The translations under genes and the position numbers were made by a program. Below the pieces are notes generated by a model that searched no databases, was not told where the DNA came from, and saw only the letters and a list, made by a program, of their open reading frames with translations. From a virus (lineage: Duplodnaviria > Heunggongvirae > Uroviricota > Caudoviricetes), in the IMG/VR virus record IMGVR_UViG_2778261180_000007: 15,825 bases of DNA, one strand, 5' to 3'. Below are positions 1 to 13,458 of this stretch, one piece after another (within the stretch, counting starts at the first letter, position 1; each line of letters begins with the position of its first letter).

Positions 1-483
1 ATGACGAAGAAAAAAGCACATAAACCTGGTTCAGCGACCATCGCGCTTAACAAGCGCGCCCGTCACGAATACTTTATCGAAGAAGAGTTCGAAGCGGGAC
101 TTGCCCTGCAAGGCTGGGAGGTTAAATCCCTGCGCGCAGGAAAAGCCAATATCAGCGACAGCTACGTCCTTCTGCGTGACGGAGAGGCATTTCTGTTTGG
201 CGCTAACATCACGCCAATGGCCGTGGCCTCCACGCATGTGGTGTGCGATCCTACCCGTACCCGCAAGTTACTTCTCAACCAGCGCGAACTGGACTCATTG
301 TACGGTCGCGTCAATCGAGAAGGCTATACCGTAGTGGCGCTCTCCCTGTACTGGAAAAATGCCTGGTGCAAAGTGAAAATCGGCGTCGCCAAAGGTAAAA
401 AACAGCACGATAAACGTTCAGATATCAAAGAACGCGAATGGCAGGTGGATAAAGCACGTATCATGAAAAACGCCCACCGTTAA
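1..483 (+). CDS. smpB: SsrA-binding protein SmpB
   Basis: 160-aa ORF starting at the ATG at base 1. The translation ([25 protein letters not shown]...) is recognisable as SmpB, and it sits directly upstream of the tmRNA gene as in enterobacteria. Confidence 0.95.
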
Positions 484-646
484 ACCTGCACTCCAATTAT
501 TGACCAGTTCCTCACCGCGCCTCCCTCTCCGGCGGCGCGAATGAACATCTTATTGGCTATCACATCCGACACAAATGTTGCCATCCCATTGCTTAATCGA
601 ATAAAAATCAGGCTACATGGGTGCTAAATCTTTAACGATAACGCCA

Positions 647-690
647 TTGAGGCTGGTCATGGTGCTCATAAATCTGGTATACTTACCTTT
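647..690 (+). promoter_or_regulatory. candidate ssrA promoter
   Basis: Extended -10-like TGgTATACT at 675-683 lies about 15 nt upstream of the mature tmRNA 5' end, consistent with a short 5' leader removed by processing. A TTGAGG hexamer at 647-652 is too far away to be a standard -35. Assigned by eye only. Confidence 0.35.
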
Positions 691-697
691 ACACATT

Positions 698-1060
698 GGG
701 GCTGATTCTGGATTCGACGGGATTTGCGAAACCCAAGGTGCATGCCGAGGGGCGGTTGGCCTCGTAAAAAGCCGCAAAAAATAGTCGCAAACGACGAAAA
801 CTACGCTTTAGCAGCTTAATAACCTGCTTAGAGCCCTCTCTCCCTAGCCTCCGCTCTTAGGACGGGGATCAAGAGAGGTCAAACCCAAAAGAGATCGCGT
901 GGAAGCCCTGCCTGGGGTTGAAGCGTTAAAACTTAATCAGGCTAGTTTGTTAGTGGCGTGTCCGTCCGCAGCTGGCAAGCGAATGTAAAGACTGACTAAG
1001 CATGTAGTACCGAGGATGTAGGAATTTCGGACGCGGGTTCAACTCCCGCCAGCTCCACCA
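698..1060 (+). ncRNA. ssrA: tmRNA (transfer-messenger RNA, SsrA), 363 nt
   Basis: Starts GGGGCTGATTCTGGATTCGACGGG and ends GGTTCAACTCCCGCCAGCTCCACCA (tRNA-like acceptor/T-arm with CCA). Internal tag reading frame GCA AAC GAC GAA AAC TAC GCT TTA GCA GCT TAA at 787-819 encodes (A)ANDENYALAA. Confidence 0.95.
1038..1060. other. attL core: last 23 nt of ssrA (TTCAACTCCCGCCAGCTCCACCA)
   Basis: A P4-type integrase gene follows ssrA directly, and an imperfect copy of this segment recurs at 12922-12943 at the far end of the P4-like gene set. Confidence 0.4.
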
Positions 1061-1093
1061 CTTGCTCTTCCGGATACGTCCGGAGAAATCCTG

Positions 1094-1128
1094 AAAGCCC
1101 GCATGGCACAAGCTCTGCGGGCTTTTTT
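1094..1128 (+). terminator. intrinsic terminator downstream of ssrA
   Basis: GC-rich hairpin AAAGCCCGCA...TGCGGGCTT followed by TTTTTT (1122-1128). Confidence 0.5.
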
Positions 1129-1172
1129 GTGTCTACCGTTGTCCGAGGATATCCAGCTAAATCCAGTGATTA

Positions 1173-1224
1173 TTGGTATACGTTTAGGTATACGGTAGGA
1201 TGTATACCTAAACGCGTATACCAA
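1173..1224. repeat. inverted pair of a 21-bp motif (TTGGTATACGnTTAGGTATAC) upstream of int; candidate integrase arm-type or operator sites
   Basis: TTGGTATACGTTTAGGTATAC at 1173-1193 and its near-perfect reverse complement GTATACCTAAACGCGTATACCAA at 1202-1224. A third copy, TTGGTATACGATTAGGTATAC, lies at 12848-12868 next to the attR-like site. Confidence 0.5.
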
Positions 1225-1244
1225 TTCATGAAGGAACGGCTAAA

Positions 1245-2444
1245 GTGGCAAGAACGACACGCCCCCTGACCAACACAGAAGTTCTGCGCGCTAAAGCGTT
1301 AGAAAAGGATCTAACGTTGCATGATGGCGATGGTCTTTTTCTGCTCGTTAAAACGAACGGTAAGAAGTTATGGCGTTTCCGTTATCAACGTCCAACAACA
1401 AAGCAGCGAACAATGATGGGGCTAGGTGCATTTCCCGCCCTCTCACTTGCTGACGCCCGGCGGTTAAGAGCGGATTACCTTTCCTTGCTAGCCAACGGAA
1501 TTGACCCGCAAATTCAAGCTGAGATTGTAGAGGAACAGCAACAAATTGCACTGGACAGTATTTTTTCAACAGTCGCCGCTAACTGGTTCCAGCTTAAAAG
1601 CAAAAGCGTTACCCCTGATTACGCGAAAGACATTTGGCGTTCACTAGAAAAAGATGTATTCCCTGCCATCGGTGAGATTCCAGTTCAGCAAATCAAAGCC
1701 CGAATGCTTGTTGAAGCCCTAGAGCCAATCAAAGCACGTGGGGCGCTAGAGACGGTACGTCGTCTGGTGCAGCGCATTAATGAGATAATGATTTATGCCG
1801 TAAACACAGGTCTGATTGATGCCAATCCAGCATCAGGTATTGGGATGGCCTTTGAGAAACCTAAAAAGCAAAACATGCTTACTCTCCGGCCAGAAGAATT
1901 ACCGAAGCTGATGCGTTCTTTAATTATGTCTAATCTATCCGTTCCGACACGTTGTCTTATTGAGTGGCAACTACTGACCCTTGTGCGCCCTTCTGAAGCC
2001 TCCGGTACAAGGTGGGCAGAGATCGATCTCGCAGCAAAGGTCTGGACGATTCCACCCGAACGGATGAAGGCCAAGCGTGAGCACATTGTTCCTCTATCTT
2101 CTCAGGCATTAGAAATTCTGGAAGTAATGAAACCAATCAGTGCTCATCGTGAACATGTTTTTCCCAGTAGAAATGACCCGAAACAGTCAATGAATAGCCA
2201 AACTGCTAATGCAGCACTCAAACGCATTGGTTATGGTGGGAAATTAGTTGCTCATGGGTTACGATCCATCGCAAGTACTGCACTCAATGAAGCCGGATTT
2301 AATCCTGATGTAATTGAAGCAGCTCTAGCACATAGTGATAAAAATGAAGTACGAAGAGCTTATAACCGCTCAACGTACCTTAATAAAAGAATAGAACTTA
2401 TGGCATGGTGGGGAAGGTTTGTTTATAAAACAAACCTTTTATAA
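1245..2444 (+). CDS. int: P4-family tyrosine integrase (site-specific recombinase)
   Basis: 399-aa ORF with a GTG start preceded by AAGGA. N-terminal arm-binding-like region (LHDGDGLFLLVKTNGKKLWRFRYQRP) and C-terminal catalytic signature (AHGLRS ... AHSDKNEVRRAYNRSTY) typical of P4-like integrases. Position directly 3' of a tmRNA gene. Confidence 0.9.
   Translation: MARTTRPLTNTEVLRAKALEKDLTLHDGDGLFLLVKTNGKKLWRFRYQRPTTKQRTMMGLGAFPALSLADARRLRADYLSLLANGIDPQIQAEIVEEQQQIALDSIFSTVAANWFQLKSKSVTPDYAKDIWRSLEKDVFPAIGEIPVQQIKARMLVEALEPIKARGALETVRRLVQRINEIMIYAVNTGLIDANPASGIGMAFEKPKKQNMLTLRPEELPKLMRSLIMSNLSVPTRCLIEWQLLTLVRPSEASGTRWAEIDLAAKVWTIPPERMKAKREHIVPLSSQALEILEVMKPISAHREHVFPSRNDPKQSMNSQTANAALKRIGYGGKLVAHGLRSIASTALNEAGFNPDVIEAALAHSDKNEVRRAYNRSTYLNKRIELMAWWGRFVYKTNLL
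2414..2444 (+). terminator. possible terminator hairpin inside the 3' end of int
   Basis: AAGGTTTG (2414-2421) pairs with CAAACCTT (2431-2438) and is followed by TTTTATAA. The int stop (2442-2444) directly abuts the stop of the convergent ATPase gene (2445-2447). Confidence 0.3.
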
Positions 2445-4142
2445 CTATACTTTAAAGAACTTATTTGTCGAAGATAACTCAAGGATCGAGTTACTCATCA
2501 TCATTTTCATGTCCGCATCTTCTGAAAACTTATCACTTAATATTGACACAATATATTGACCATTTATATTATTTGCTTCAAAAAATATATCTCTAATTTG
2601 ATTCACATCGACATCTTCAATGCTATCATGAATAACAAAAGTAGGTCTCTTTAATTTAATCTTATCCACAAACTTAATATAAGCCAAATCAAATGCAGTT
2701 ATTTCACCTTTCTTCTTGCCGCCATTACTGTTTGGTGTAACGCATGATATATCAAAATTACACTTACCTTTATCAACATCAAAGGAAAGATCAAAAATGT
2801 ATCTTTCCCCATATATTTCCTTTGTAAGATCACCAAAAAACTCATTGAAAATCTCGATGTTTTTTTCCAGACCTTGAACTGCTAACTCTATTTCTAAAAG
2901 TAATTTCTCTCGACTATCTTCAAGAGATTTTATAAGGGCATTTGTATCATTAATACGCGAAAGATTAGACTCTATGCTAGCAAGATTTTCACGTAATTCA
3001 GTAAGCTTATTAAATAATTGATTTATAGACTTTAATGTTTCAGGTTCTTTGATTGTTCTAAATAGGGATGATTCTTGTTCATGAAGATCATTGATTTTTT
3101 TATTTACAGTTTCTATTTCTTCTTTTTTCTTTAACAATTCAGATTCTAAAAAACTGATTTTATTCTTAATAATATCATTATGGAACAATACCATTTCTTC
3201 GTAAGTCCTTTTAAGTTCCCCATTAAAATAAATCCCCGCAGAATTATATATTTCCATTAAATCATTTTCTACAAGTTGTGTGATATTATTCTTCAAGGAC
3301 AAGATCGATTCTTCGATATTTCTTACTCGCATATTTAAGGAGGCATAGCTCAAAGAATAATCACTGATATTCTTCTGTATTTCTGAAAGCTTTTTTAAGC
3401 TTTCATCATGACTATCTTTAAAATCGAAGTTCTTAATATTTCTTTCCGCCTCTGCAATTTCTTTCTTCAGAGGCTTAATCATTTTTGCTAAAACAGTCTC
3501 TCTATTTGGATTCCTGTATGCGGCAAGATATGTCTTTTGTTTTTTTATCTCTTTGTTAAAATCACCTTTTTTCTTTATCAGAGGTAACCCATTGAACCCA
3601 AATAAAAACAAGTATAATAGATCATAGACATCAGGAGTCGTATTCCCATGTAAGAAATTAAGCGTTTTCTGCATTTTATCATTCGTGTTTCTAATAAATT
3701 TATGCGAAACATTCCTCAGTGATGGCTTATCTGTAGTTAACCCAAACACTGCTTGAGCTATAAATTCAGAATATTGTTTCTTATCTACTTCAACATCATT
3801 TAAAAAATATTTTGAATTTTTATCATCAATAGATATTATACGTGAAACAACTGCCTTTTTATTTTCTACCGTATTGAAATCCAATGAAAATTTCAAAACA
3901 TTATTATTAATTAACGATACAATTTCAGGTATATCTTTTCCAAACTCTGCATCATGATAAATATCATGACCTGATGACATAAATAAATAATCTAAAACAC
4001 GCGATAATGTGGATTTACCTACACTATTGCCGCTATCTTTGCCTGATGTTCTTTTATTTACAATTAGATTCAGACCGTCTTTAAACGTCACCTCTCTTAC
4101 AAGAGAGTCATTTTTTAAAATAATAAGTTTATTGAGCCTCAT
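2445..4142 (-). CDS. ABC-type (SMC/RecF-like) ATPase with long central coiled-coil; candidate defence-system ATPase
   Basis: 565-aa ORF. N-terminal strand-plus-P-loop layout (LNLIVNKRTSGKDSGNSVGKSTL, Walker A lysine K43). About 300 aa of heptad-like K/E/L/N-rich sequence. C-terminal signature-like SNGGKKKG followed by Walker-B-like TFVIHDSIEDVD. Start overlaps the upstream gene by 14 nt; GGTGGA lies upstream of the ATG. Confidence 0.75.
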   Translation of the reverse strand: MRLNKLIILKNDSLVREVTFKDGLNLIVNKRTSGKDSGNSVGKSTLSRVLDYLFMSSGHDIYHDAEFGKDIPEIVSLINNNVLKFSLDFNTVENKKAVVSRIISIDDKNSKYFLNDVEVDKKQYSEFIAQAVFGLTTDKPSLRNVSHKFIRNTNDKMQKTLNFLHGNTTPDVYDLLYLFLFGFNGLPLIKKKGDFNKEIKKQKTYLAAYRNPNRETVLAKMIKPLKKEIAEAERNIKNFDFKDSHDESLKKLSEIQKNISDYSLSYASLNMRVRNIEESILSLKNNITQLVENDLMEIYNSAGIYFNGELKRTYEEMVLFHNDIIKNKISFLESELLKKKEEIETVNKKINDLHEQESSLFRTIKEPETLKSINQLFNKLTELRENLASIESNLSRINDTNALIKSLEDSREKLLLEIELAVQGLEKNIEIFNEFFGDLTKEIYGERYIFDLSFDVDKGKCNFDISCVTPNSNGGKKKGEITAFDLAYIKFVDKIKLKRPTFVIHDSIEDVDVNQIRDIFFEANNINGQYIVSILSDKFSEDADMKMMMSNSILELSSTNKFFKV

Positions 4143-4362
4143 ATACTATTCCACCATTTCCATCTAACTCAATTGCGCCGATTATGAAAAGCCAATCTAA
4201 TGAGTAAAGAAAAAGATCAAACGATAACTCGAAGATAGAATTTACTAAATCATACAATCGAGATATTTCAATGACCATTGAATCATTACTTTGAAAGATC
4301 CCAAGCACTACACTTCCAATATATACAGGATTTGCTTTTGGATCCGTATCAATTGTAATCAT
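4129..4362 (-). CDS. hypothetical small protein (77 aa) with hydrophobic C-terminal half; operon member
   Basis: ORF preceded by GGAG with 8-nt spacing. Overlaps both neighbours by 14 nt, indicating coupled translation. Hydrophobic segment FDLFLYSLDWLFIIGAIEL. No family recognised. Confidence 0.5.
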   Translation of the reverse strand: MITIDTDPKANPVYIGSVVLGIFQSNDSMVIEISRLYDLVNSIFELSFDLFLYSLDWLFIIGAIELDGNGGIVYEAQ

Positions 4363-4897
4363 TTGGATTCTCCAGCACTATACATTCGATAATAGCATAG
4401 CTAACAATCATACGAATGCCATAATCAATATCTTCCTGTAAAAACTCTGAATCTAAATTAGAACACGAACTAACTGTTTCTTGAGCAGCTCTAATAACAT
4501 CATCTATAATATTATCCGAGTTTTTCCTTATGAGTTCAATGTTAAATGGTTTCTCATAAAGACCATATAATCCCAATGCAGTATTATAATAACCTCTAAA
4601 CTGTCTTTTCAATTTGACACTACCATTTAAAATTATAGCATCAAGTGTTTTTATGGATTCATCAACTAGCAGAGCATCTTCTTTATAAAGTTCAGCTACC
4701 CATCTGTTTCTTTTAAGATCATTGAATTCTATTTTAACATCAATATTTGATGCTATTCTGTTTAAGTTTTGCTCGCTACCAACTGAATTAGAAATAATTT
4801 CAATTAACTTACCAATAACACTGGCTCTTAACATTCTTGGCTGGTTGTTTATATGCACAGGACCAGTATTATTATTGAAATTAACACCAGAACCCAT
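4349..4897 (-). CDS. hypothetical protein (182 aa); operon member
   Basis: ORF preceded by GGGGG. Starts 3 nt after the stop of the upstream small gene. N-terminus carries an NNNTGPVHINN motif that repeats the C-terminus of the upstream protein. No catalytic motif recognised. Confidence 0.65.
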   Translation of the reverse strand: MGSGVNFNNNTGPVHINNQPRMLRASVIGKLIEIISNSVGSEQNLNRIASNIDVKIEFNDLKRNRWVAELYKEDALLVDESIKTLDAIILNGSVKLKRQFRGYYNTALGLYGLYEKPFNIELIRKNSDNIIDDVIRAAQETVSSCSNLDSEFLQEDIDYGIRMIVSYAIIECIVLENPNDYN

Positions 4898-4899
4898 AA

Positions 4900-5172
4900 T
4901 TACCCCCGATTATCAATATTCACAGGACCATTATTATCTTGAAAATATTGAGAACGCGCTCCTTGATTAATGAAGTTTCTATTAGTTGTAATTTTTACAA
5001 TCTGGGAATTAAGATCATTTATTGTAATGTTAAGTTGTTTTATCTCATTATCTTTCTTGGTTACTTGCATAGTCTGATATATTGCTATACATCCAGAGAT
5101 CACCCCAACAATATATCCAAAGGCACTTACATATTCGTTAGCAAGTAGTGATGCAATCATTTGGAGCTCCAT
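4900..5172 (-). CDS. small membrane-anchored protein (90 aa; 86 aa from the alternative ATG at 5160); first gene of the operon
   Basis: Predicted N-terminal transmembrane helix (IASLLANEYVSAFGYIVGVISGCIAIY) followed by a charged helical stretch. The second in-frame ATG at 5160 has a better-placed GGAG. C-terminus NNGPVNIDNRG. Confidence 0.55.
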   Translation of the reverse strand: MELQMIASLLANEYVSAFGYIVGVISGCIAIYQTMQVTKKDNEIKQLNITINDLNSQIVKITTNRNFINQGARSQYFQDNNGPVNIDNRG

Positions 5173-5429
5173 TTCAAGCTGAAAGATTTAAAGTCACAAC
5201 AATCTCATCCTATTAGGGTAGCTAGGATAGCAACTCATGAAGAGTAAATAAATAGGTATTAATCATTATCGTTTACATGATCTAATTCAACATAGATCCA
5301 CTCATGGCCTCTATACTTTCTCATAAACACAGTGTTTAGCTATGTGGGCTTAAGAGGTCTAAATTGATGTACTTACTTTATCAATTGATATAACCCCAAA
5401 TTATAATCGTTTCATATCATTGACGCGCA

Positions 5430-5448
5430 GTGCTTTCCCCGCCTCGCC
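5430..5448 (-). other. cos site: 19-nt cohesive-end sequence GGCGAGGCGGGGAAAGCAC (minus-strand reading)
   Basis: Plus-strand GTGCTTTCCCCGCCTCGCC is the exact reverse complement of the cohesive-end sequence I recall for P2 and P4. It lies between psu and the cargo operon, where cos sits in an integrated P4. Confidence 0.75.
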
Positions 5449-5548
5449 CGCCCGCTTTGCGGGGCGGTTTTAATGCAGTTGCACTGACACGCTCAGACCG
5501 CGCCGGGAATGGCGCGGTCTGCAGAAAATGAGGCAGGGAAACGCATGC

Positions 5549-5582
5549 AAAGCCATGCACCTTATCGATGCATGGCTTTTTT
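5549..5582 (+). terminator. hairpin plus T-tract between cos and the psu 3' end
   Basis: AAAGCCATGCA (5549-5559), loop CCTTATCGA, TGCATGGCTTT (5569-5579), then a T run. May stop read-through into or out of the late operon; orientation of function uncertain. Confidence 0.35.
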
Positions 5583-5612
5583 CAGTAAAAACGGGCGGAT
5601 TTTCGGGGAATT

Positions 5613-6185
5613 TTACACAGACTGACGTGATGCCAGTTGCGCACTTTTACGCGAAAAAATCATGTTCTGCGCAGGGGTGAATTTTTCACGGCTGTCATCC
5701 ACCGAAGCCGCGTCAGGTCTGAATCCAATGGCCGTTAAAATGTCGCTATCCTGTGCGGAATAATTAATTTTTTCACCCTTCGCAAGCCAGGACAGGAGGG
5801 CTTCACGCAGGGCATCTGTGGCACGCTGTATGGCACAGTTTCGGGCAATGGCCGTCAGCTCACTGTAGCCCATCAGCTCCGGTGCCAGTGCCGCCGCCAG
5901 TGCTGTGCCGTGCTGCTGCATAAAATCATTCAGCCGGTCGCGGATGCTGATGTGCTGAACGGCTTCATGCGAACGAATATAACGACCGGCGGCCTGATTC
6001 ACCTGCCATTTTCTGACTTCGATAATATTGCGTAATTCGTCCAGGCGACTGACGTTTCTGCCTTCTCCTGACAGAAGCCGCAGATATTCCTGTTCGGCCG
6101 CAGCCAGCTCATTTTTGCGTTGCAGCCATGCTGCTTTGTTATTCTGACAGGTGTCAAAGGCCTGCTGTAAGGCTGTGCTTTCCAT
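5613..6185 (-). CDS. psu: Psu (polarity suppression / capsid decoration protein), P4-like
   Basis: 190-aa ORF, the size of P4 Psu, last gene of the sid-delta-psu array next to cos. Sequence MESTALQQAFDTCQNN... recognised as Psu-like. Confidence 0.85.
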   Translation of the reverse strand: MESTALQQAFDTCQNNKAAWLQRKNELAAAEQEYLRLLSGEGRNVSRLDELRNIIEVRKWQVNQAAGRYIRSHEAVQHISIRDRLNDFMQQHGTALAAALAPELMGYSELTAIARNCAIQRATDALREALLSWLAKGEKINYSAQDSDILTAIGFRPDAASVDDSREKFTPAQNMIFSRKSAQLASRQSV

Positions 6186-6258
6186 CGTTATCTCTTTCTC
6201 ATCATGCTGAAGAATAAAAATACGGTGTGCGGCGACGGCCGGTGTTAACCGGCAGCCC

Positions 6259-6759
6259 TCATTCCAGACGCAGCGAATATGATTGTGTTTTTAACCGTAC
6301 TGGCGGCAGTTCCTGTTTTTCATGCAGGCTTTCTGCAAGCTCGTCCGGCGTGACCGGGCGGACAATGAAGCGGTTGATGGTCTGAAGCGTTTTAAACACC
6401 AGACCACAGCCCGGATCCGTGCACACATAAAAACGCTCGGTGACTTCCTGAGACAGACGCCGCGATGTTCTTGACAGTGCAAGGCCTTTACATCTCCGAC
6501 AACAATATCCGGTAACAAGCATTCTTTTCGGGCGTTTCATACTGCCGGAGGCTGACGTCAGTGAATCGCGGTATCTCTGTTTGCCTGAAATGTATTCCAT
6601 TCCTGAATCTTTACTGTCAGAGAAAAAGCTTTCACTCGCTTCAAATGTCGCAGAGCAATAAATATTCCGGCACTGTGCAATCATTATCTTGGTGCCATCG
6701 TCCATGAAATGTGCGCGACGGGTGTGAGCAACATGTCCACACGACGGGCAGTAAATCAT
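6259..6759 (-). CDS. delta: Delta, Ogr/Delta-family zinc-finger late-gene activator (tandem Ogr-like repeats)
   Basis: 166-aa ORF with two Ogr-like units, each carrying CPxCGH...C-x-N-x-x-C(S)ATF-type Cys motifs (MIYCPSCGHVAHTRR...QCRNIYCSATF and ...CRRCKG...CTDPGCGLVF). ATGA overlap with the sid stop. Confidence 0.85.
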   Translation of the reverse strand: MIYCPSCGHVAHTRRAHFMDDGTKIMIAQCRNIYCSATFEASESFFSDSKDSGMEYISGKQRYRDSLTSASGSMKRPKRMLVTGYCCRRCKGLALSRTSRRLSQEVTERFYVCTDPGCGLVFKTLQTINRFIVRPVTPDELAESLHEKQELPPVRLKTQSYSLRLE

Positions 6760-7490
6760 GACAGCAGTCCTCTGGCCTTAAGCTCTGCTCCCTGCTGGTC
6801 TATTTTGTCCTGCCACACCTTGCGCTGTGCCGGTGTGCCTGCCACCTCATAATCCATGTGCGGGAGTGTTGCCGCTGACAGTCCGGTCAGCCGGAGAACC
6901 GGCTCACCGGTGAGGCTGATTTGCATCTGTTTTATTTTCTGTTCCAGCGATGATTTCACCTGCTGCATGACAGCCTTTTCCGGTGCGACGTAGCCCTGAT
7001 GGCCGGTGGTGTTGGCGAGCGGATTTTCCTGTACCAGGATGCTCAGATGCATTGCCCGGACAAGCACCTCACAGGTTTCATTCAGGGCGTGTTCCAGCTC
7101 ATGCTCTGCATACAGACTCAGAAGGTGATGATGTGCCTTCCGGTAGGCGGTGGCCGTGCTGTCACACGCCCCTTTCAGGCGTTCACGTTCAAAATTCAGC
7201 ACCACGGCCAGATTGTCATATTCCTGTACCAGCTCCCGGCGTGCCACGCGCTCAATGTGGCGCTGTTTCAGCTCGTCGCTCAGGACACCACCGGCTGCAC
7301 GAAAGGCCGTGCGCCAGTCGTCAGCGTCGTTTCCGTCGGCCTGCGCCAGCGCATTTTTTTCCTGCTCTGCCCGTTCAATGGCCGTGACGGTCTCATCCAT
7401 CAGGCGGGCGTTCTCAAGATGGGCGGCTCTGGCCTTTTCCAGTTGTGCCAGCGCGGGTTGCAGATATTCAGGGATGGTGTTGTCAGACAT
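6756..7490 (-). CDS. sid: Sid (capsid size determination, external scaffold), P4-like
   Basis: 244 aa from the ATG at 7490, which is preceded by AGGAG (MSDNTIPEYLQPALAQ...). The ORF track's earlier ATG at 7556 lacks a Shine-Dalgarno and would overlap the promoter region. Confidence 0.8.
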   Translation of the reverse strand: MSDNTIPEYLQPALAQLEKARAAHLENARLMDETVTAIERAEQEKNALAQADGNDADDWRTAFRAAGGVLSDELKQRHIERVARRELVQEYDNLAVVLNFERERLKGACDSTATAYRKAHHHLLSLYAEHELEHALNETCEVLVRAMHLSILVQENPLANTTGHQGYVAPEKAVMQQVKSSLEQKIKQMQISLTGEPVLRLTGLSAATLPHMDYEVAGTPAQRKVWQDKIDQQGAELKARGLLS

Positions 7491-7562
7491 TTTCCGGCTC
7501 CTCGTCACTTCAGGTTGAGAAAATTGTGACGTACACCGGACAACAACACGACGCATTGCAGA

Positions 7563-7580
7563 TGTGCCAGCCCTGACACA
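7563..7580 (-). promoter_or_regulatory. candidate Delta/Ogr activator site (TGT-N12-ACA) of the sid late promoter
   Basis: TGTGCCAGCCCTGACACA. Its centre is about 82 bp upstream of the sid ATG, compatible with a dyad centred near -55 and a ~27-nt leader. Confidence 0.35.
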
Positions 7581-7659
7581 GGAGACTCATCCTCAGACCG
7601 GCAAGCCAGGAAAAGGTCGCAGGAAAAACCGGCTTACTGTTTGTTTTTTTATATTTTAC

Positions 7660-7763
7660 TGTTCACCTCTGTTCACCATAAGAAAAAAGATAAGTAATAC
7701 AGTAAGTTAAAGGGTGAACAATCGCAGTAATGACTGTTCACCGTCTGTTCACCACTGTTCACC
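7660..7763. repeat. iteron cluster: six copies of the P4 type-I octamer TGTTCACC; candidate alpha-binding origin
   Basis: TGTTCACC at 7660-7667, 7670-7677, 7735-7742, 7746-7753 and 7756-7763; inverted copy GGTGAACA at 7713-7720. Flanked by a T-rich tract (7641-7657). Lies between the divergent sid and vis promoters. Confidence 0.7.
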
Positions 7764-7922
7764 CGTTGATGGGCTTTTTGTGCTGTTTATTACTGTTTGT
7801 TTTTATTAATTCGCCGGGAATGAATAAGAAAAAACGATTTGTATTTCACTATAAAAATTACGAATTGCTTTAAGTGGCTTTAAATGACTTTAAGTGGAGA
7901 TGAACAAAAAACACACAAGCAT

Positions 7923-7940
7923 TGTAAGGCTGCCGGAACA
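7923..7940 (+). promoter_or_regulatory. candidate Delta-dependent late-left promoter activator site (TGT-N12-ACA) upstream of vis
   Basis: TGTAAGGCTGCCGGAACA. Centre is about 111 bp upstream of the vis ATG, and about 395 bp upstream of the putative early promoter. Confidence 0.3.
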
Positions 7941-8042
7941 AATCCCCCCTGTTGCGTCTGCTGAAAATATTCACAAAATAAAACGCTACCCGAAGCCGGA
8001 CGGACTTATCCGGTGCTGTATGGACATTAACGAGGTAGCCCG

Positions 8043-8309
8043 ATGCAAGCTGTTTTTTCTTCCCCGTCTCCTGCCCCTGTGACGCCACTGATGCCGCTGC
8101 CGGACATCACACAGGAGCGTTTTTTACGTCTGCCGGAAGTGATGCACCTGTGCGGCCTGTCACGCTCGACCATCTATGAACTCATCCGTAAGGGGGAATT
8201 TCCGCCGCAGGTGAGTCTTGGCGGTAAAAATGTGGCCTGGCTGCACTCTGAAGTCACCGCATGGATGGCCGGCCGCATTGCCGGACGCAAACGGGGGTAT
8301 GACGCATGA
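8043..8309 (+). CDS. vis: Vis/AlpA-family DNA-binding regulator (excision and late-transcription control)
   Basis: 88-aa ORF, the size of P4 orf88/Vis. AlpA-type helix-turn-helix core [48 protein letters not shown] lies 7 nt upstream of the ATG. Confidence 0.8.
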
Positions 8310-8896
8310 TGATGCCCGCTCTGCAAAAACTCCCTTTTTCTGGCTTGCCTTTTTCCGGCATTTGCGGATATAGTTTTTCCGTTGCCGCAAAATCGGCAGC
8401 CGGGCGTGAGAACCCGTGTAACTCGAAGGCGACATATGACGCGCCATGCGTCTTTTTTTGTGTCGCAATCAACGCCACAGAGCGCCAGATTATGGTGTGG
8501 CGTGTGGTTTGCCGTGCAGGTATGATCCTGTTCGCAATCGCATGTTATGCCACTGAGTCAATGGTAGCTCAGGCGGGGCAGCCTCCGGGCTGGCCGGTAT
8601 TCTTCGAGGCCGGTATTCTCACCCCCGTCTGGGCTATCGCCATCGAGCGTGAGAACTCCGGCGATAGCAGTTATTTGCTACTCGAAGGAGGCTGCCTTAT
8701 GGCTACAACCCTTACCCCCTCACACCCTGAATTTGTCTTTGTGTTTGCGGCTGTCCGTCGCGCAGACCGTCATCCCCGTATCTGTATGCTTCGCACCGTC
8801 GCCGGTGATGAACGCAGTGCCCGCCGTTCCCTTGTCCGTGACTATGTGCTCTCCCTTGCTGCCCGTCTGCCGGTGGTGGAGGTGTCCCGTGCGTAA
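8306..8896 (+). CDS. eta: eta-like long ORF (194-196 aa, three consecutive ATGs) enclosing kil and spanning the immunity region
   Basis: Open frame from an ATGATGATG start that overlaps the vis stop (ATGA). Matches my recollection of P4 eta: about 197 codons, three candidate start codons, kil nested in the same frame at the 3' end. Coding status itself is uncertain. Confidence 0.4.
8345..8374 (+). promoter_or_regulatory. candidate early promoter (PLE-like)
   Basis: TTGCCT (8345-8350), 18-bp spacer, TATAGT (8369-8374); alternative -10 GATATA with 16-bp spacer. Lies just upstream of seqA. Confidence 0.3.
8406..8687 (+). promoter_or_regulatory. P4-type RNA immunity region: seqA (8406-8428), seqB within a candidate CI RNA (8602-8622), seqC (8649-8687)
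   Basis: seqA GTGAGAA...CTCGAAG and seqC GTGAGAA...CTCGAAG are each complementary to seqB CTTCGAG...TTCTCAC (reverse complement GTGAGAAtaccggcCTCGAAG). seqC runs into the GGAGG Shine-Dalgarno of kil. Confidence 0.45.
8699..8896 (+). CDS. kil: Kil-like small protein (65 aa)
   Basis: ATG at 8699 preceded by GGAGG that overlaps seqC. 65 codons, the size I recall for P4 Kil. Shares frame and stop with eta. Confidence 0.5.
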
Positions 8897-9176
8897 TAAA
8901 AAAGCCCCTCAGACCGTCTCAGCACGTCATGACGCCCGTGAACACCTCAGCATTGAGGCTTACCATAAGCTCAACCGCGCCAGCGCCGTATCCCAGTTTG
9001 TTGGGGGTGATTTGATTCACCGTGAACTCTCCGGCCTGCATCAGCTCTACATTCCGCATATTTTCAGCTACCTGAATGAAGATATTGATTTTGTGCTGAA
9101 TGAGCTGAAAGCCAAAGGCCTGTGCCGCGATTTTCTCGCCCAGCAGAAAGACCGGGGAGACAGGACGCATGTTTGA
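8889..9176 (+). CDS. Eps-like protein (95 aa), candidate helper-derepression factor
   Basis: GTG start at 8889 preceded by GGAGG and overlapping the kil stop. Stop overlaps the start of the orf151-like gene. Assignment is by position and size relative to P4 epsilon. The ORF track's longer form (from 8649) lies in the immunity region. Confidence 0.5.
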
Positions 9177-9624
9177 TTTTCCCCAGCCCGGTGAGATTTA
9201 CCGTTCTGCCGGTTTTCCCGATGTGGCCGTAGTCGGCATTCTGGAAGACGGTATTCCGTGGGAAATGCCGTACCGCTGCCCGGACATTGTCTGGAACCCG
9301 TACCGCCGTAAATTCAGTATTCTTGTGCGTATCCTCGCCGACGGGCGCACCACAGACATCCCGCTGGGGCGTTTTCTGCGGGAATTTACCTGTGACCGTC
9401 CTGACCTGTTTAAACGCAGCCCCGTAAACCGGCATGCGGTACTGAAAGAAATGGCCGGAGACCCGGAATTACAGAAATGGCGGGAGAAATATCTGGATAT
9501 TTACCCGCAGGAGCCTGTTCCGGTCAGCCGGGCGGCACCGGTGGCGCGGGAATGGCGGGAAATTCCCCGCACGGAGCCTGACCCGGAAATCACCCCGGAT
9601 AACAGTTACCGCAATTATCTGTAA
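9169..9624 (+). CDS. P4 orf151-like hypothetical protein (151 aa)
   Basis: Size and position (between eps and alpha) match P4 orf151. Start overlaps the upstream stop. Confidence 0.7.
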   Translation: MFDFPQPGEIYRSAGFPDVAVVGILEDGIPWEMPYRCPDIVWNPYRRKFSILVRILADGRTTDIPLGRFLREFTCDRPDLFKRSPVNRHAVLKEMAGDPELQKWREKYLDIYPQEPVPVSRAAPVAREWREIPRTEPDPEITPDNSYRNYL

Positions 9625-9759
9625 TTAAAAAACGACACCCGAAAAATTAAATGTGCGTATTCGCGCAGGGATACGCACGTCTTCAGGAGACGCAGATATG
9701 CCTTATCAGTTAATGCAACCGGCACGGAATGCAGTCATCTGTCACAGGGAGGAAAGCAA

Positions 9760-10080
9760 ATGAAAACACCCTTACCGCCCGTCTTACGCGCTGCCCTTTA
9801 CCGTCGCGCTGTCGCCTGTGCCTGGCTGACCGTGTGCGAACGTCAGCACCGCTACCCGCATCTCACCCTTGAGTCACTGGAGGCGGCCATCGCCGCTGAG
9901 CTGGAAGGCTTTTATCTGCGCCAGCACGGTGAGGAAAAAGGGCGTCAGATAGCCTGTGCCCTGCTGGAAGATTTAATGGAATCCGGCCCCCTGAAGGCCG
10001 CGCCGTCGCTGTCCTTTCTCGGGCTGGTTGTGATGGATGAACTCTGTGCCCGTCACATAAAAGCGCCGGTACTGCACTGA
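9760..10080 (+). CDS. P4 orf106-like hypothetical protein (106 aa)
   Basis: GGGAGG lies 7 nt upstream of the ATG. Sits directly upstream of alpha. A 21-codon upstream ORF overlaps its start. Confidence 0.65.
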
Positions 10081-10094
10081 AGGAGAACAACACC

Positions 10095-12428
10095 ATGAAA
10101 ATGAACGTAACCGCCACCGTCAGCCATGCACTCGGCCACTGGCCGCGTATTCTCCCGGCGCTGGGGATTCAGGTGCTGAAAAACCGTCATCAGCCCTGTC
10201 CGGTCTGTGGCGGGAGTGACCGCTTCCGTTTTGATGACAGGGAGGGGCGCGGCACCTGGTACTGCAATCAGTGTGGTGCCGGTGACGGCCTGAAACTGGT
10301 TGAAAAGGTGTTTGGTGTTTCCCCGTCCGACGCGGCCGCAAAGGTGGCTGCCGTGACCGGCAGCCTGCCCCCGGCTGACCCGGCAGTGACGGCCGCCGCC
10401 GGTGCTGAAACAGACGCTGCCCGGAAGAACGCCGCCGCACTGGCACAAACCCTGATGGCAAAAACCCGTCCCGGAACCGGTAACGCCTACCTGACCCGCA
10501 AGGGCTTTCCCGGCCGGGAATGCCGGATGCTGACCGGCACACACAGAGCCGGTGGCGTGAGCTGGCGCGCCGGTGACCTTGTGGTGCCACTGTATGACGA
10601 CAGCGGCGAACTGGTTAACCTTCAGTTAATCAGTGCTGACGGCCGTAAGCGCACCCTGAAAGGCGGACAGGTCAGGGGCACCTGTCACATCCTTGAAGGA
10701 CAGAATCAGGCCGGAAAACGTCTGTGGATAGCGGAGGGATACGCGACCGCACTTACCGTGCATCACCTGACCGGTGAAACGGTGATGGTGGCGCTTTCTT
10801 CCGTGAATCTCCTTTCTCTGGCCAGCCTTGCCCGGCAGAAGCATCCGGCCTGTCAGATTGTCCTTGCTGCTGACCGTGACCTCAGCGGTGACGGCCAGAA
10901 AAAAGCCGCCGCAGCCGCAGATGCGTGTGAAGGTGTTGTTGCCCTGCCGCCGGTCTTCGGTGACTGGAATGATGCCTTCACGCAGTACGGCGGGGAAGCC
11001 ACCCGTAAGGCCATTTATGATGCCATCCGGCCACCGGCTGAAAGCCCGTTCGACACCATGAGCGAAGCGGAGTTTTCCGCCATGAGTACCAGCGAAAAGG
11101 CCATGCGTATCTATGAGCATTACGGCGAGGCGCTCGCGGTTGATGCCAACGGCCAGCTTCTGTCCCGTTATGAAAATGGTGTCTGGAAGGTGCTGCCACC
11201 ACAGGACTTTGCCCGGGATGTGGCCGGGCTGTTTCAGCGGCTGCGCGCGCCGTTCTCCTCCGGGAAGGTGGCCTCCGTGGTGGACACCCTGAAGCTGATT
11301 ATTCCGCAGCAGGAAGCCCCCTCCCGCCGCCTGATTGGCTTTCGTAACGGCGTGCTCGACACGCAGAACGGCACGTTCCACCCGCACAGTCCGTCACACT
11401 GGATGCGCACCCTGTGCGATGTGGATTTCACCCCACCGGTGGAAGGGGAAACGCTGGAAACCCACGCCCCCGCGTTCTGGCGCTGGCTTGACCGTGCCGC
11501 CGGTGGCCGTGCGGAAAAACGCGACGTGATTCTGGCCGCACTGTTTATGGTGCTGGCAAACCGCTATGACTGGCAGCTCTTTCTGGAGGTGACCGGTCCC
11601 GGCGGAAGCGGCAAAAGTATCATGGCCGAAATAGCCACCCTGCTGGCCGGGGAGGATAACGCCACGTCGGCCACCATTGAGACGCTGGAATCCCCGCGTG
11701 AACGTGCCGCGTTAACTGGCTTCTCACTGATACGCCTGCCGGACCAGGAAAAATGGAGCGGCGACGGAGCCGGACTCAAGGCCATCACCGGCGGCGATGC
11801 AGTGTCCGTTGACCCGAAATACCGGGATGCGTACTCCACGCACATCCCGGCGGTGATTCTGGCCGTGAACAATAACCCGATGCGCTTCACCGACCGCAGC
11901 GGCGGCGTGTCACGCCGGCGGGTGATTATTCACTTCCCGGAACAGATAGCCCCGCAGGAGCGCGACCCGCAACTTAAGGACAAAATCACCCGCGAGCTGG
12001 CGGTCATCGTGCGTCACCTGATGCAGAAGTTCAGCGACCCGATGCTCGCCCGGTCACTGCTTCAGTCCCAGCAGAACTCAGACGAGGCACTGAACATCAA
12101 ACGGGATGCCGACCCGACGTTTGATTTTATCGGCTATCTGGAAACCCTGCCGCAGACCAGCGGCATGTATATGGGGAACGCCAGTATCATCCCGCGTAAC
12201 TACCGTAAATACCTCTATCACGCCTATCTGGCCTACATGGAGGCAAACGGCTACCGGAATGTACTCAGTCTGAAAATGTTCGGGCTGGGGCTGCCGGTGA
12301 TGCTGAAGGAATACGGGCTGAATTACGAGAAGCGCCATACCAAACAGGGGATACAGACCAACCTGACGCTGAAAGAGGAAAGCTACGGCGACTGGCTGCC
12401 AAAATGTGACGACCCTGCAACAACCTGA
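10095..12428 (+). CDS. alpha: Alpha: P4-type primase-helicase replication protein
   Basis: 777 aa, the size of P4 alpha. AGGAG Shine-Dalgarno. N-terminal zinc motif CPVCGGSDRFRFDD...CNQCG. Toprim-like EGYATAL and AADRD. Helicase Walker A VTGPGGSGKS. Iteron arrays lie on both sides. Confidence 0.9.
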   Translation: MKMNVTATVSHALGHWPRILPALGIQVLKNRHQPCPVCGGSDRFRFDDREGRGTWYCNQCGAGDGLKLVEKVFGVSPSDAAAKVAAVTGSLPPADPAVTAAAGAETDAARKNAAALAQTLMAKTRPGTGNAYLTRKGFPGRECRMLTGTHRAGGVSWRAGDLVVPLYDDSGELVNLQLISADGRKRTLKGGQVRGTCHILEGQNQAGKRLWIAEGYATALTVHHLTGETVMVALSSVNLLSLASLARQKHPACQIVLAADRDLSGDGQKKAAAAADACEGVVALPPVFGDWNDAFTQYGGEATRKAIYDAIRPPAESPFDTMSEAEFSAMSTSEKAMRIYEHYGEALAVDANGQLLSRYENGVWKVLPPQDFARDVAGLFQRLRAPFSSGKVASVVDTLKLIIPQQEAPSRRLIGFRNGVLDTQNGTFHPHSPSHWMRTLCDVDFTPPVEGETLETHAPAFWRWLDRAAGGRAEKRDVILAALFMVLANRYDWQLFLEVTGPGGSGKSIMAEIATLLAGEDNATSATIETLESPRERAALTGFSLIRLPDQEKWSGDGAGLKAITGGDAVSVDPKYRDAYSTHIPAVILAVNNNPMRFTDRSGGVSRRRVIIHFPEQIAPQERDPQLKDKITRELAVIVRHLMQKFSDPMLARSLLQSQQNSDEALNIKRDADPTFDFIGYLETLPQTSGMYMGNASIIPRNYRKYLYHAYLAYMEANGYRNVLSLKMFGLGLPVMLKEYGLNYEKRHTKQGIQTNLTLKEESYGDWLPKCDDPATT

Positions 12429-12440
12429 CCCTCATGACTC

Positions 12441-12800
12441 ATCTGACCGGCATCTGCCGGTCTTTTTTCATCCCTGAATCCCCCGAAGGTGAACAATCCA
12501 CTGTTCACCCTTCACCGTATATTCACCCGTTATCACACTGAAATTAAAAGAGAAAAATGAAAGGTGAACAGTGTGAACAATCAAATCAAAAAAAACTTTT
12601 TTCTCCCTGTGTGATTTCAGTACGGGGGATTAATCACCGGTATGAGTCACACCGGCAGAATGCCGGAGGTGAAGAATCGAATGTTCACCCTTCACCCATT
12701 ATTCACCACCTATCAAACTGAAATAAAAGGAGAAAAAAGAAAGATGAACAGTGTGAACAGTTCTTCCGAAAAAAAATTTTTTTCCTGTACGATATAGCAT
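12441..12800. repeat. two tandem ~180-bp imperfect direct repeats with TGTTCACC/GGTGAACA iterons and A8/T6-7 tracts; cis-replication-region-like
   Basis: Unit 1: GGTGAACA 12488-12495, TGTTCACC 12502-12509, degenerate copies 12510-12528, GGTGAACA 12563-12570, GTGAACA 12573-12579, A8cT6 12588-12602. Unit 2 repeats this 180 bp later (TGTTCACC 12682-12689, A8T7 12769-12783). Each unit begins with a CCGGCA...TGCCGG hairpin. Confidence 0.65.
12445..12468 (+). terminator. intrinsic terminator of the alpha (left) operon
   Basis: GACCGGCA, loop TC, TGCCGGTC, then TTTTTT, 17 nt after the alpha stop. Confidence 0.55.
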
Positions 12801-12847
12801 CAATCCAAGTAAAAATGCGCTTTCATTTCACATTAACTTACAGCCAT

Positions 12848-12868
12848 TGGTATACGATTAGGTATACA
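12848..12868. repeat. third copy of the 21-bp TTGGTATACGnTTAGGTATAC motif (candidate arm-type site)
   Basis: TTGGTATACGATTAGGTATAC, 54 bp before the attR-like sequence. Confidence 0.4.
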
Positions 12869-12921
12869 CACAAAAACTGAATTAAACAAAATCATTAAAA
12901 ATCAAAGCAATACAATATTTA

Positions 12922-12943
12922 TTCAAACTCCGCCAGCCCACCA
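12922..12943. other. attR-like degenerate copy of the ssrA 3' end (TTCAAACTCCGCCAGCCCACCA)
   Basis: Aligns to the attL core TTCAACTCCCGCCAGCTCCACCA with three single-base indels. Lies immediately beyond the last P4-like feature and before the chromosomal autotransporter gene. Confidence 0.35.
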
Positions 12944-13070
12944 ATCATGATTGGACGGTATAAGGACAACACCAATAAAAACAGGAAGTTAGCAGTCTCA
13001 GCAGGACACCGACCAGACGGTGAAGAGACATAAAAGGATACGCAAAGGAGCCGCGGCTCCTGGTGACATG

Positions 13071-13103: not shown

Positions 13104-13430
13104 TCAGAACGACCAGTTCACACCAGCTACCCCGTTCCACGGGGATTCCACACCGGCACCATGGCTATACCCCACCCCAAGATGCCCGCTTAACGTACTG
13201 CTGAATGAGGCTTTAATACCTGCCTGGTATATTCCACGTCTGCCCGACAAATCATTGACAAAATTACCGTCACTATTCACTTTCACCCGATTATCATCGA
13301 CAAATTCTTTGCGCACAGCCGCCTTCAGGCAGGGTTCAATTTCCATACCGTTCCCCAGACGCATGTTGTAACTCAGCGTTGCACCCAGTTCACGATATAA
13401 ACTGCGGGTATCGACTGATTTCGATTCCAT
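13104..13430 (-). CDS. autotransporter C-terminal beta-barrel segment (108 aa), in a different frame from the upstream passenger ORF
   Basis: Ends ...GVAGVNWSF with a terminal aromatic residue, typical of outer-membrane beta-barrel C-termini. Separated from the passenger ORF by a stop and a frame change at 13431-13461. Confidence 0.5.
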   Translation of the reverse strand: MESKSVDTRSLYRELGATLSYNMRLGNGMEIEPCLKAAVRKEFVDDNRVKVNSDGNFVNDLSGRRGIYQAGIKASFSSTLSGHLGVGYSHGAGVESPWNGVAGVNWSF

Positions 13431-13458
13431 GCCATTGGATAAATGATATTCAGGGTTA

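Follow-up and report, generated by a model that had tools for sequence, protein, structure and literature searches.

A probable four-gene Lamassu variant whose detached membrane effector is coupled through lineage-specific matched motifs

Our analysis of a 15,825-nucleotide stretch of viral DNA (Caudoviricetes; IMG/VR record IMGVR_UViG_2778261180_000007; the whole stretch is called the window below) indicates that four minus-strand genes, here named g1 to g4 from upstream to downstream, are probably a four-gene variant of the Lamassu defence system, in which a detached membrane effector is coupled to the sensor by matched motifs that differ from lineage to lineage. The C-terminal tail of g1 and the N-terminal head of g2 carry the same short peptide, which is conserved in both protein families, co-varies between them across lineages and is maintained by selection at the protein level. 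An earlier note on this DNA had pointed out the repeated peptide without recognising the context of the operon, and it is this context, a Lamassu or ABC-three component (ABC-3C) system in a P4 satellite hotspot, that gives the motif its meaning. We put at roughly 0.5 the probability that the two ends are a homotypic pair of beta-forming motifs that couples g1 to Lamassu in the manner of amyloid signalling.

The matched ends of g1 and g2

The protein g1 ends in ...SQYFQDNNGPVNIDNRG immediately before its TAA stop codon, and g2 begins with MGSGVNFNNNTGPVHINNQ two bases past that stop. The features concerned are the following.

4900..5160, minus strand (open reading frame to 5172): g1, an 86-residue small membrane protein and putative detached Lamassu effector, from the open reading frame list, the PGAP protein WP_000562050.1 at the equivalent place and homologues
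4903..4953, minus strand: g1 tail motif SQYFQDNNGPVNIDNRG, residues 70-86, matching the g2 head
4349..4897, minus strand: g2, an LmuA-like protein of 182 residues with an N-terminal motif and a CTD10-type helical domain, no effector domain
4841..4888, minus strand: g2 head motif GVNFNNNTGPVHINNQ, residues 4-19, matching the g1 tail
4916..4946, no strand: DNA repeat copy in g1, from a repeat search
4851..4881, no strand: DNA repeat copy in g2, from a repeat search
4903..4907, minus strand: GGGGG in the last Arg-Gly codons of g1, read directly; from its place, the probable Shine-Dalgarno sequence of g2

The peptides and DNA strings quoted in the earlier note are correct, and the strings do belong to imperfect direct repeats, with copies of 31 nt that are 81% identical; the spacing given for them, about 55 nt, is only approximate, being 65 nt in register and 35 nt between the quoted strings. 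The exact 9-mer GGTCCTGTG occurs in the window at these two sites only, where shuffles lead us to expect 0.08 copies and 1 shuffle in 200 reaches two. At the peptide level tail and head match without gaps over 13 residues (F..N.GPV.I.N, BLOSUM62 score 43), and this match is the best local alignment of the whole of g1 against g2, with a score that 5 of 20,000 shuffles of the same composition attain. The repetition of the peptide is genuine, and chance would hardly produce it. In AlphaFold2 models of the monomers the g1 tail is unstructured, with a predicted local distance difference test (pLDDT) of 49-57, and the g2 head has no regular structure (pLDDT 62-67).

Alignment of homologues shows that the motif is conserved in both families. 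The 96 close homologues of g2, nearly all of them exactly 182 residues long, come from Enterobacterales, Vibrio, Pseudomonas, Shewanella, Aeromonas, Undibacterium and other hosts. Across 31 sequences, which reach down to 40% identity, the head residues F7 and N10 never vary, and V5 and P13 hardly ever do. The tail SQYFQDNNGPVNIDNRG is nearly invariant among 22 homologues of g1, which have 79-90 residues, and is the most constant part of that protein. Moreover, 18 of 18 loci from species-representative genomes (39-91% identity) retain all four genes, and in every one a small protein that has both membrane helix and stalk and ends in ...KSQYFQ[DE]N[ST]G[PS]VNIDNRG directly precedes g2.

Loci at a greater distance were gathered by three protein-identity look-ups and two DNA-pattern scans (back-translated ECKILEKP); the DNA pattern of ECQVLEKP had no match in viral contigs. 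At these loci the architecture is unchanged and the motif is different, each tail resembling the head of its own partner. Five examples, under our locus labels, are these.

L025: g1 tail IIQKSGSHSKNNQTVVF, g2 head VTQRSGNYSRNVQVVVD
L028: g1 tail NNLGNNNGIISINNRGDIS, g2 head NNLGNNAGIISRENTGTIN
L033: g1 tail SVNNKGVIGGSISGGVSNN, g2 head SVNNKGIIAGKIEGDVTNN
L068: g1 tail QTNIGDGKQAGRDM, g2 head QTNIGNGKQAGRDL
L123: g1 tail INNTGNNSGNIAGGDI, g2 head INNTGNNDGNIAGRDI

For the statistics we used 44 distinct tail/head pairs from eight lineages, between which the g2 bodies are less than 40% identical, leaving out L077, L102, L103, L104 and L107, whose 'standalone' hits are in fact of the fused type or motif-less. 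The split is kept, with the tail matching its own head, in 44 of 44 distinct loci. The score of a tail with its own head averages 48, against 24 for pairs across lineages, and the own head outscores all heads of other lineages at 37 of the 44 loci. When each of the eight lineages is represented once, the summed score of the true pairs is attained in 12 of 100,000 permutations; inside the most diverse lineage it is attained in 90 of 100,000, and in a four-member lineage the true pairing is the best of all 24 permutations; since the loci are related by descent, these and later permutation figures are indicative and not strict probabilities. Nearly all of the matches (43 of 44) are ungapped, with a median identity of 53% and a median length of 17 residues (range 9-27), and the matched stretch stops, by median, 2 residues short of the C-terminus of g1 and begins, by median, 5 residues beyond Met1 of g2. 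Asn, Gly, Ile or Val make up 278 of the 398 identical positions (70%). The motifs contain more Gly (4.2-fold), Asn (2.4-fold), Gln (2.0-fold) and Val (1.5-fold) than the g2 body does, and less Leu (0.16-fold, a six-fold deficit), Lys (0.64-fold) and Ile (0.66-fold). On these alignments tail and head co-vary across lineages and the match is lineage-specific. Thus, among the readings offered in the earlier note, a duplicated interaction motif is the one favoured by conservation in both proteins and by the co-variation of their ends.

What keeps the two ends alike? Identical tail and head residues use the same codon in 199 of 394 cases, where 214 would be expected from the codon usage of these genes. 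This lack of any excess of synonymous identity implies that selection on the proteins maintains the match, rather than gene conversion or slippage; on the same count we reject gene conversion or recent duplication of the DNA. The DNA repeat is, from the codons, a by-product of encoding the same residues (N, G, P, V, I) with AT-rich codons, and the proposal that a slippage-prone repeat is the reason for it is not supported, there being in addition one deletion product only. Nothing was found that points to a function of the repeat at the level of RNA or DNA, in a promoter and terminator scan of 2300-5650 that was uninformative.

At the junction, the spacing between the stop of g1 and the start of g2 varies over the 44 loci from -32 to +8 nt, with both out-of-frame relations and one in-frame case. 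The last codons of g1 (CGGGGG, window 4903-4908) would hold the ribosome-binding site of g2 and give coupled translation; in relatives (L002-L019) AGAGG or CGAGG stands at the same place and g2 starts within a few nt of the g1 stop. Such double duty of the Arg-Gly codons may explain the invariant ...NRG end. As a separate observation, g2 lies in the frame of g1 at 1 of 44 distinct loci, and 26 of the 27 non-overlapping loci are out of frame, a bias that may reflect avoidance of readthrough fusions or, since the samples are not independent, shared ancestry.

Lamassu genes and a small membrane protein

The remaining genes of the operon, and the body of g2, carry the following features.

4352..4819, minus strand: all-helical bundle of g2, CTD10-like, residues 27-182
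4129..4362, minus strand: g3, LmuC, ABC-3C middle component 6 (MC6), from Pfam and PGAP
2445..4142, minus strand: g4, LmuB, a short ABC ATPase resembling structural maintenance of chromosomes (SMC) proteins (DUF2326), 565 residues, from Pfam and PADLOC

The protein g4 matches Pfam DUF2326 (E 1.3e-17), with weak coiled-coil-type matches besides, and the PADLOC models PDC-M68B (1.2e-45) and LmuB (4.3e-16), and its FVIHDS agrees with the Walker B pattern hhhhD[QSTE] given for short Lamassu (PMC12663957). The gene g3, which shares a 14-nt overlap with each of its neighbours, encodes a clear match to Pfam MC6 (E 4.4e-13, 49.5 bits for a cut-off of 27.2). For g2 the match to Pfam CTD10 is weak when taken alone (18.1 bits, below the cut-off of 28.1), and the closest structures to its helical bundle are solved LmuA chains. 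A profile of the g2 family has 273 representatives among 1.8 billion proteins, mostly standalone proteins of 180-210 residues; a minority of 270-340 residues are HNH-CTD10 or SMEK_N-CTD10 proteins, and most of these pass the CTD10 cut-off. Only about 25 residues precede the bundle in g2, and there is no domain in them. PGAP names g1 and g2 'hypothetical', g3 'ABC-three component system middle component 6' and g4 'DUF2326 domain-containing protein', and the PADLOC models matched LmuB alone in this cassette.

ABC-3C and Lamassu form one superfamily (PMC10586767). The cassette has an LmuB, an LmuC encoded between LmuA and LmuB, and the C-terminal domain of LmuA, which from its sequence is expected to dock as in other systems, and it is, by its gene families and their order, a short Lamassu (ABC-3C) system in a four-gene variant; we count it as a variant because its LmuA has no effector domain. 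By the same comparisons g2 is an LmuA reduced to its C-terminal domain plus about 25 motif-bearing residues. A group of LmuA proteins that have 'seemingly lost the effector domain', Clade O with more than 100 systems, has been described with no mention of an upstream partner (PMC12663957), and the present family fits that description.

In the variant seen here the fourth gene, g1, stands upstream of LmuA, and its protein has two parts ahead of the tail.

5077..5133, minus strand: hydrophobic N-terminal helix of g1, YVSAFGYIVGVISGCIAIY, residues 10-28 (86-residue numbering), predicted to be transmembrane from Kyte-Doolittle values and AlphaFold2
4975..5073, minus strand: helical stalk or coiled coil of g1, about residues 30-62, from the AlphaFold2 helix that runs to residue 66 (90-residue numbering)

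The start at 5160, which had been proposed as an alternative with a better Shine-Dalgarno sequence, is supported by GGAG 6 nt upstream, by the 86-residue form of PGAP and by the homologues, most of which start at that Met. The single N-terminal membrane helix that had been proposed holds up as well, since the best 19-residue Kyte-Doolittle window reaches 1.73 and AlphaFold2 predicts one continuous helix over residues 13-66, with pLDDT 89-95 over the hydrophobic part. Equivalent segments of most g1 relatives have Kyte-Doolittle values of about 1.7-2.8. In Pfam and PDB searches the stalk gave weak coiled-coil-type matches only, for example to DivIC and P22 gp26.

Several further observations concern this protein. 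Many g1 proteins start with M-[D/E] followed by the hydrophobic helix (MDELTT... in L012, MEFLTQ... in L019, MDWT... in L031). An acidic residue at position 2-3 is a reported trait of Bell, HeLo and MLKL N-termini; the g1 N-termini have no detectable sequence similarity to the Bell, HeLo and MLKL domains. At four loci from metagenome contigs (L055, L075, L100, L105) the upstream protein has about 110 residues and no strongly hydrophobic helix (Kyte-Doolittle about 1.0), and its tail nonetheless matches the head of its own g2; in this lineage the upstream protein may be a different type of effector with the same coupling logic. Finally, g1 is frameshifted at L004 3727-3998 (Siccibacter colletis), the g1 tail is frameshifted in protein P0112, and a deletion has fused g1 to g2 in a contig described below (L020): three kinds of damage, all in g1 or at the g1-g2 junction.

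How the motifs might act

How could an LmuA without an effector domain pass on a signal? In solved Lamassu systems the C-terminal domain of LmuA is held as a monomer by LmuB2-LmuC, sensing of DNA ends frees LmuA, and the freed domains form a tetramer that activates the attached effector (PMC12663957; 10.1101/2025.03.14.643221). We propose that LmuA is split here, with g2 keeping the CTD10 part held by LmuB and LmuC, and with g1 as the effector, in which a helical stalk carries the membrane helix. Tail and head would be short segments rich in Asn and Gly that form beta structure and pair by stacking of like residues on like. At rest, g2 would be sequestered as a monomer on LmuB2-LmuC, and sensing of phage DNA would release it and let the CTD10 domains oligomerise, as in the other Lamassu systems. 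The clustered head motifs would then fold into a beta template, the template would recruit and order the g1 tails, and the clustered g1 helices would breach or depolarise the inner membrane, so that the infection is aborted. On this scheme the cassette would protect against phage by abortive infection. The in-register likeness at Asn and Gly, which co-varies between the partners, fits parallel stacking of like on like, whereas an ordinary interface between unlike partners would have no need of it. More tentatively, and with somewhat more doubt than belief, we consider that Lamassu of the CTD10/MC6 type may signal by prion-like templating, the g2 oligomer nucleating a cross-beta fold that converts the g1 tail.

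Several points weigh against the proposed coupling, in addition to the shared descent of the loci already mentioned. Within the E. coli-type lineage the tail hardly varies, so that co-variation is weak there, with 4,693 of 100,000 permutations scoring as high as the true pairs. Its matched core, of 13-17 residues with a conserved proline, is shorter than the roughly 20-25 residues of the known amyloid-signalling motifs of the BASS families, and over all lineages proline stands at 1.03-fold of the g2 body, not depleted as it is in BASS motifs. No similarity of g1 to Bell or Bab, effectors of amyloid signalling, was detected in Pfam and PDB searches, and g1 seems to reside in the membrane constitutively, whereas the Bell and HeLo domains are soluble. 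For the Bab/Agp pair, amyloid formation and defence are proven, whereas the case for g1 and g2 is drawn from sequence and models. The likeness to Clade O is one of description.

The main alternative, which we hold to be rather unlikely, is a static two-chain LmuA, in which the tail and head hairpins form a permanent 1:1 beta-sheet and release followed by CTD10 oligomerisation activates the effector with no templating. The motifs can be read as two short strands each with Asn-Gly turns, QYFQ-DNNG-PVNI-DNRG and GVNF-NNNTG-PVHI, possibly a four-stranded meander; coupled translation would yield nearly 1:1 amounts of the two chains; a single-chain version exists in one contig (L020); and in the Lamassu precedent oligomerisation alone suffices. 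However, a sheet between unlike chains needs no resemblance of the partners, and yet the ungapped likeness, mainly at Asn and Gly, co-varies in register. Moreover, if a covalent link were as good, fusions should be common, and we find one fused locus against 44 distinct split ones. The direct pairing of tail and head is a step that this alternative has in common with our proposal.

It is also conceivable, if improbable, that tail and head are mimics that compete for one groove, on CTD10, LmuC or LmuB for example, so that one displaces the other on activation. Two ligands of a single co-evolving pocket would likewise be alike within a locus and diverge between lineages, and both segments are flexible ends. 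A candidate pocket was not identified, however, and a composition of Asn, Gly, Gln and beta-branched residues nearly free of Leu, with strand-turn periodicity, is typical of beta-stacking motifs more than of peptides that bind in a groove; the close parallel in position and length with the proven tail/head pairs of Bab and Agp also speaks against mimicry.

We give very little credence to the idea that the repeat serves a fusion of g1 with g2, by a frameshift at the G-run or by a deletion switch. A -1 shift at CGG GGG would reach the g2 frame in the window, and a deletion of 65 nt does yield an in-frame fusion, which occurs in one contig: in L020 (ENA contig, 1398 bp; 526-1284, protein P0003) 65 nt have been cleanly deleted, from a point in one repeat copy to the equivalent point in the other, which joins g1 and g2 into a protein of 248 residues, and this single metagenome contig may be a real mutant or an assembly artefact. 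Taken at face value, this one case shows that the repeat is able to recombine. The spacing and frame of the two genes vary, however, which makes conserved recoding unlikely, and the G-run before the g1 stop is not conserved, for which reasons we rejected a programmed frameshift or readthrough into g2 in the -1 frame. Synonymous identity is no higher than codon usage predicts, and g1 and g2 are separate in each of the 28 E. coli genomes that have the cassette (at least 99% identity).

A neutral remnant, that is, similar ends without function left by a recent duplication or fission, is the least credible explanation: fused relatives make an ancestral fission plausible, but few parts of either protein are as well conserved as the motif, even where overall identity falls to 40%, the motif co-varies between lineages with g2 bodies as divergent as stated above, and the codons bear no signature of recent copying. 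The suggestion of a fusion or fission remnant thus survives as an account of origin, given the HNH and SMEK_N fusions among the relatives and the deletion fusion of L020, the one g1-g2 fusion that we found elsewhere, and not as an account of a decaying remnant, the genes being split at every one of the 44 loci and the match being under selection. The HNH-CTD10 and SMEK_N-CTD10 relatives are motif-less and have the effector domain where the motif sits, with MC6 and DUF2326 downstream at the two loci that were checked.

If our proposal of homotypic coupling is right, it would explain the 'effector-less' clade of Lamassu (more than 100 systems, PMC12663957), whose effector may be the product of the next gene upstream, joined on through a matched motif. 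Amyloid-type signalling, tied so far to NLR and TGP sensors, would extend to an SMC-like sensor of DNA, and also to ordinary unicellular bacteria, prophages and P4/P2 hotspots. If in particular the prion-like templating is true, this would be the first immune sensor of the SMC family to act through an amyloid switch, and unicellular bacteria, phages and satellites would between them hold a natural library of at least eight co-evolved motif pairs, each distinct from the others. The lineage-specific pairs offer a natural specificity series for the study of partner choice, and possibly orthogonal tags for coupling proteins. More practically, defence-system finders that expect a three-gene system will overlook the fourth or give such loci a wrong score.

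The satellite and comparison with known systems

In the window, positions 1-12428 are a P4-like satellite of E. coli that has integrated at ssrA, and its other features are these.

1-483: smpB
698-1060: transfer-messenger RNA gene (ssrA)
1245-2444: integrase
5613-6185: Psu
6259-6759: Delta
8306-8896: Ash
10095-12428: alpha primase-helicase

DUF5375 is also among the satellite genes, listed between ash and the alpha primase. The hotspot between integrase and psu is filled by the tightly packed four-gene minus-strand cassette, whose GC content is about 30%, compared with about 50% in the flanks. The cassette is present, with at least 99% identity, in 28 of 5,426 complete E. coli genomes, and it is chromosomal in all of them. 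A convincing promoter of the cassette was not found upstream of g1 in the scan of 2300-5650, an AT-rich stretch where the scan was uninformative. Between psu and g1, at 5448-5467, lies a GC-rich stem-loop, called on the plus strand, with a T run after it. The same four-gene system occurs in a P2-like prophage (L023, Logan contig SRR6869397_4429, 3628-6503), located between the Ogr/Delta region and the gpD/gpU tail genes, a second type of mobile-element hotspot. Just past the alpha primase gene, at 12500-13000, there is a second dip in GC content, to 36%, with short open reading frames only. On the minus strand at 13104-15561, an AIDA/Ag43-like autotransporter is apparently split into two open reading frames, a 700-residue passenger with eight AIDA repeats and a separate one of 108 residues that is the end of the beta-domain only; the gene is probably disrupted.

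In terms of known systems, the cassette resembles Lamassu of the short CTD10-MC6-DUF2326 type in gene order and in its three core families. It also resembles Lamassu in its location in defence hotspots of prophages and satellites (P4 integrase-psu, a P2-like prophage, IMG/VR viral contigs). Three-gene relatives, in which HNH or SMEK_N is fused to CTD10, have the same partner genes. Two things set the present cassette apart from other Lamassu: LmuA has a motif of about 20 residues at its N-terminus instead of an effector domain, and upstream there is a fourth gene, whose product, a small membrane protein, has the matching motif at its end.

The idea of one homotypic module present once on a sensor and once on a separate effector is also found in the effector-associated (Death-like) adaptors of NTPase conflict systems that Kaur et al. 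reportedly described in 2020. These are folded helical domains of about 80-100 residues, whereas the elements here are beta-forming ends of about 20 residues.

Full-text literature searches found no paper that links amyloid signalling with Lamassu, and an earlier mention in the original ABC-3C paper is possible; the paper on Bab/Agp does not mention Lamassu, ABC or SMC (10.1101/2024.11.07.622273). Paired motifs on effector and sensor are known from fungal HET-S/NWD2 and bacterial Bell/NLR systems; BASS1-10 have been reported only in multicellular bacteria and archaea, and BASS motifs of about 20-25 residues are enriched in N, Q, G, V and I and depleted of K, P and L (10.1101/2020.01.06.895854). 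As in Bell/NLR and HET-S/NWD2, the effector C-terminus and the sensor N-terminus here carry the same short motif, in which the bias to N, Q, G, V and I is shared in part. 'All-in-one' fusions of effector and sensor exist in the BASS and FASS systems as they do here (HNH-CTD10, SMEK_N-CTD10), and oligomerisation of the sensor is the proposed trigger in both. Thus the paired ends and the all-in-one forms of amyloid signalling are both found, and composition and length agree in part. There are differences as well: the sensors of BASS and FASS are NLR proteins with NB-ARC or NACHT domains (TGP in BASS11), compared with LmuB/LmuC/CTD10 here; g1 lacks an effector domain of the Bell or HeLo type; the cassettes occur in unicellular Proteobacteria, in gut bacteria and in the phages or satellites of these hosts; and the motif core is shorter, with a proline in the E. 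coli type.

The closest parallel is the amyloid signalling of Bab/Agp (BASS11), for which experiments in E. coli have demonstrated abortive infection, and in which the motifs occupy residues 86-108 of the 109 of Bab and residues 2-25 of Agp (10.1101/2024.11.07.622273). Bab has a Babybell domain, a folded unit of helices, but the model of g1 is a single long helix that includes a membrane segment, and the motif sequences belong to different families. The likenesses are nonetheless several. In both cases adjacent genes in E. coli prophage hotspots encode an effector of about 100 residues, which has an N-terminal hydrophobic helix and a motif of about 20 residues at its extreme C-terminus, and a partner with the matching motif at its extreme N-terminus, the motif being rich in Asn and Gly.

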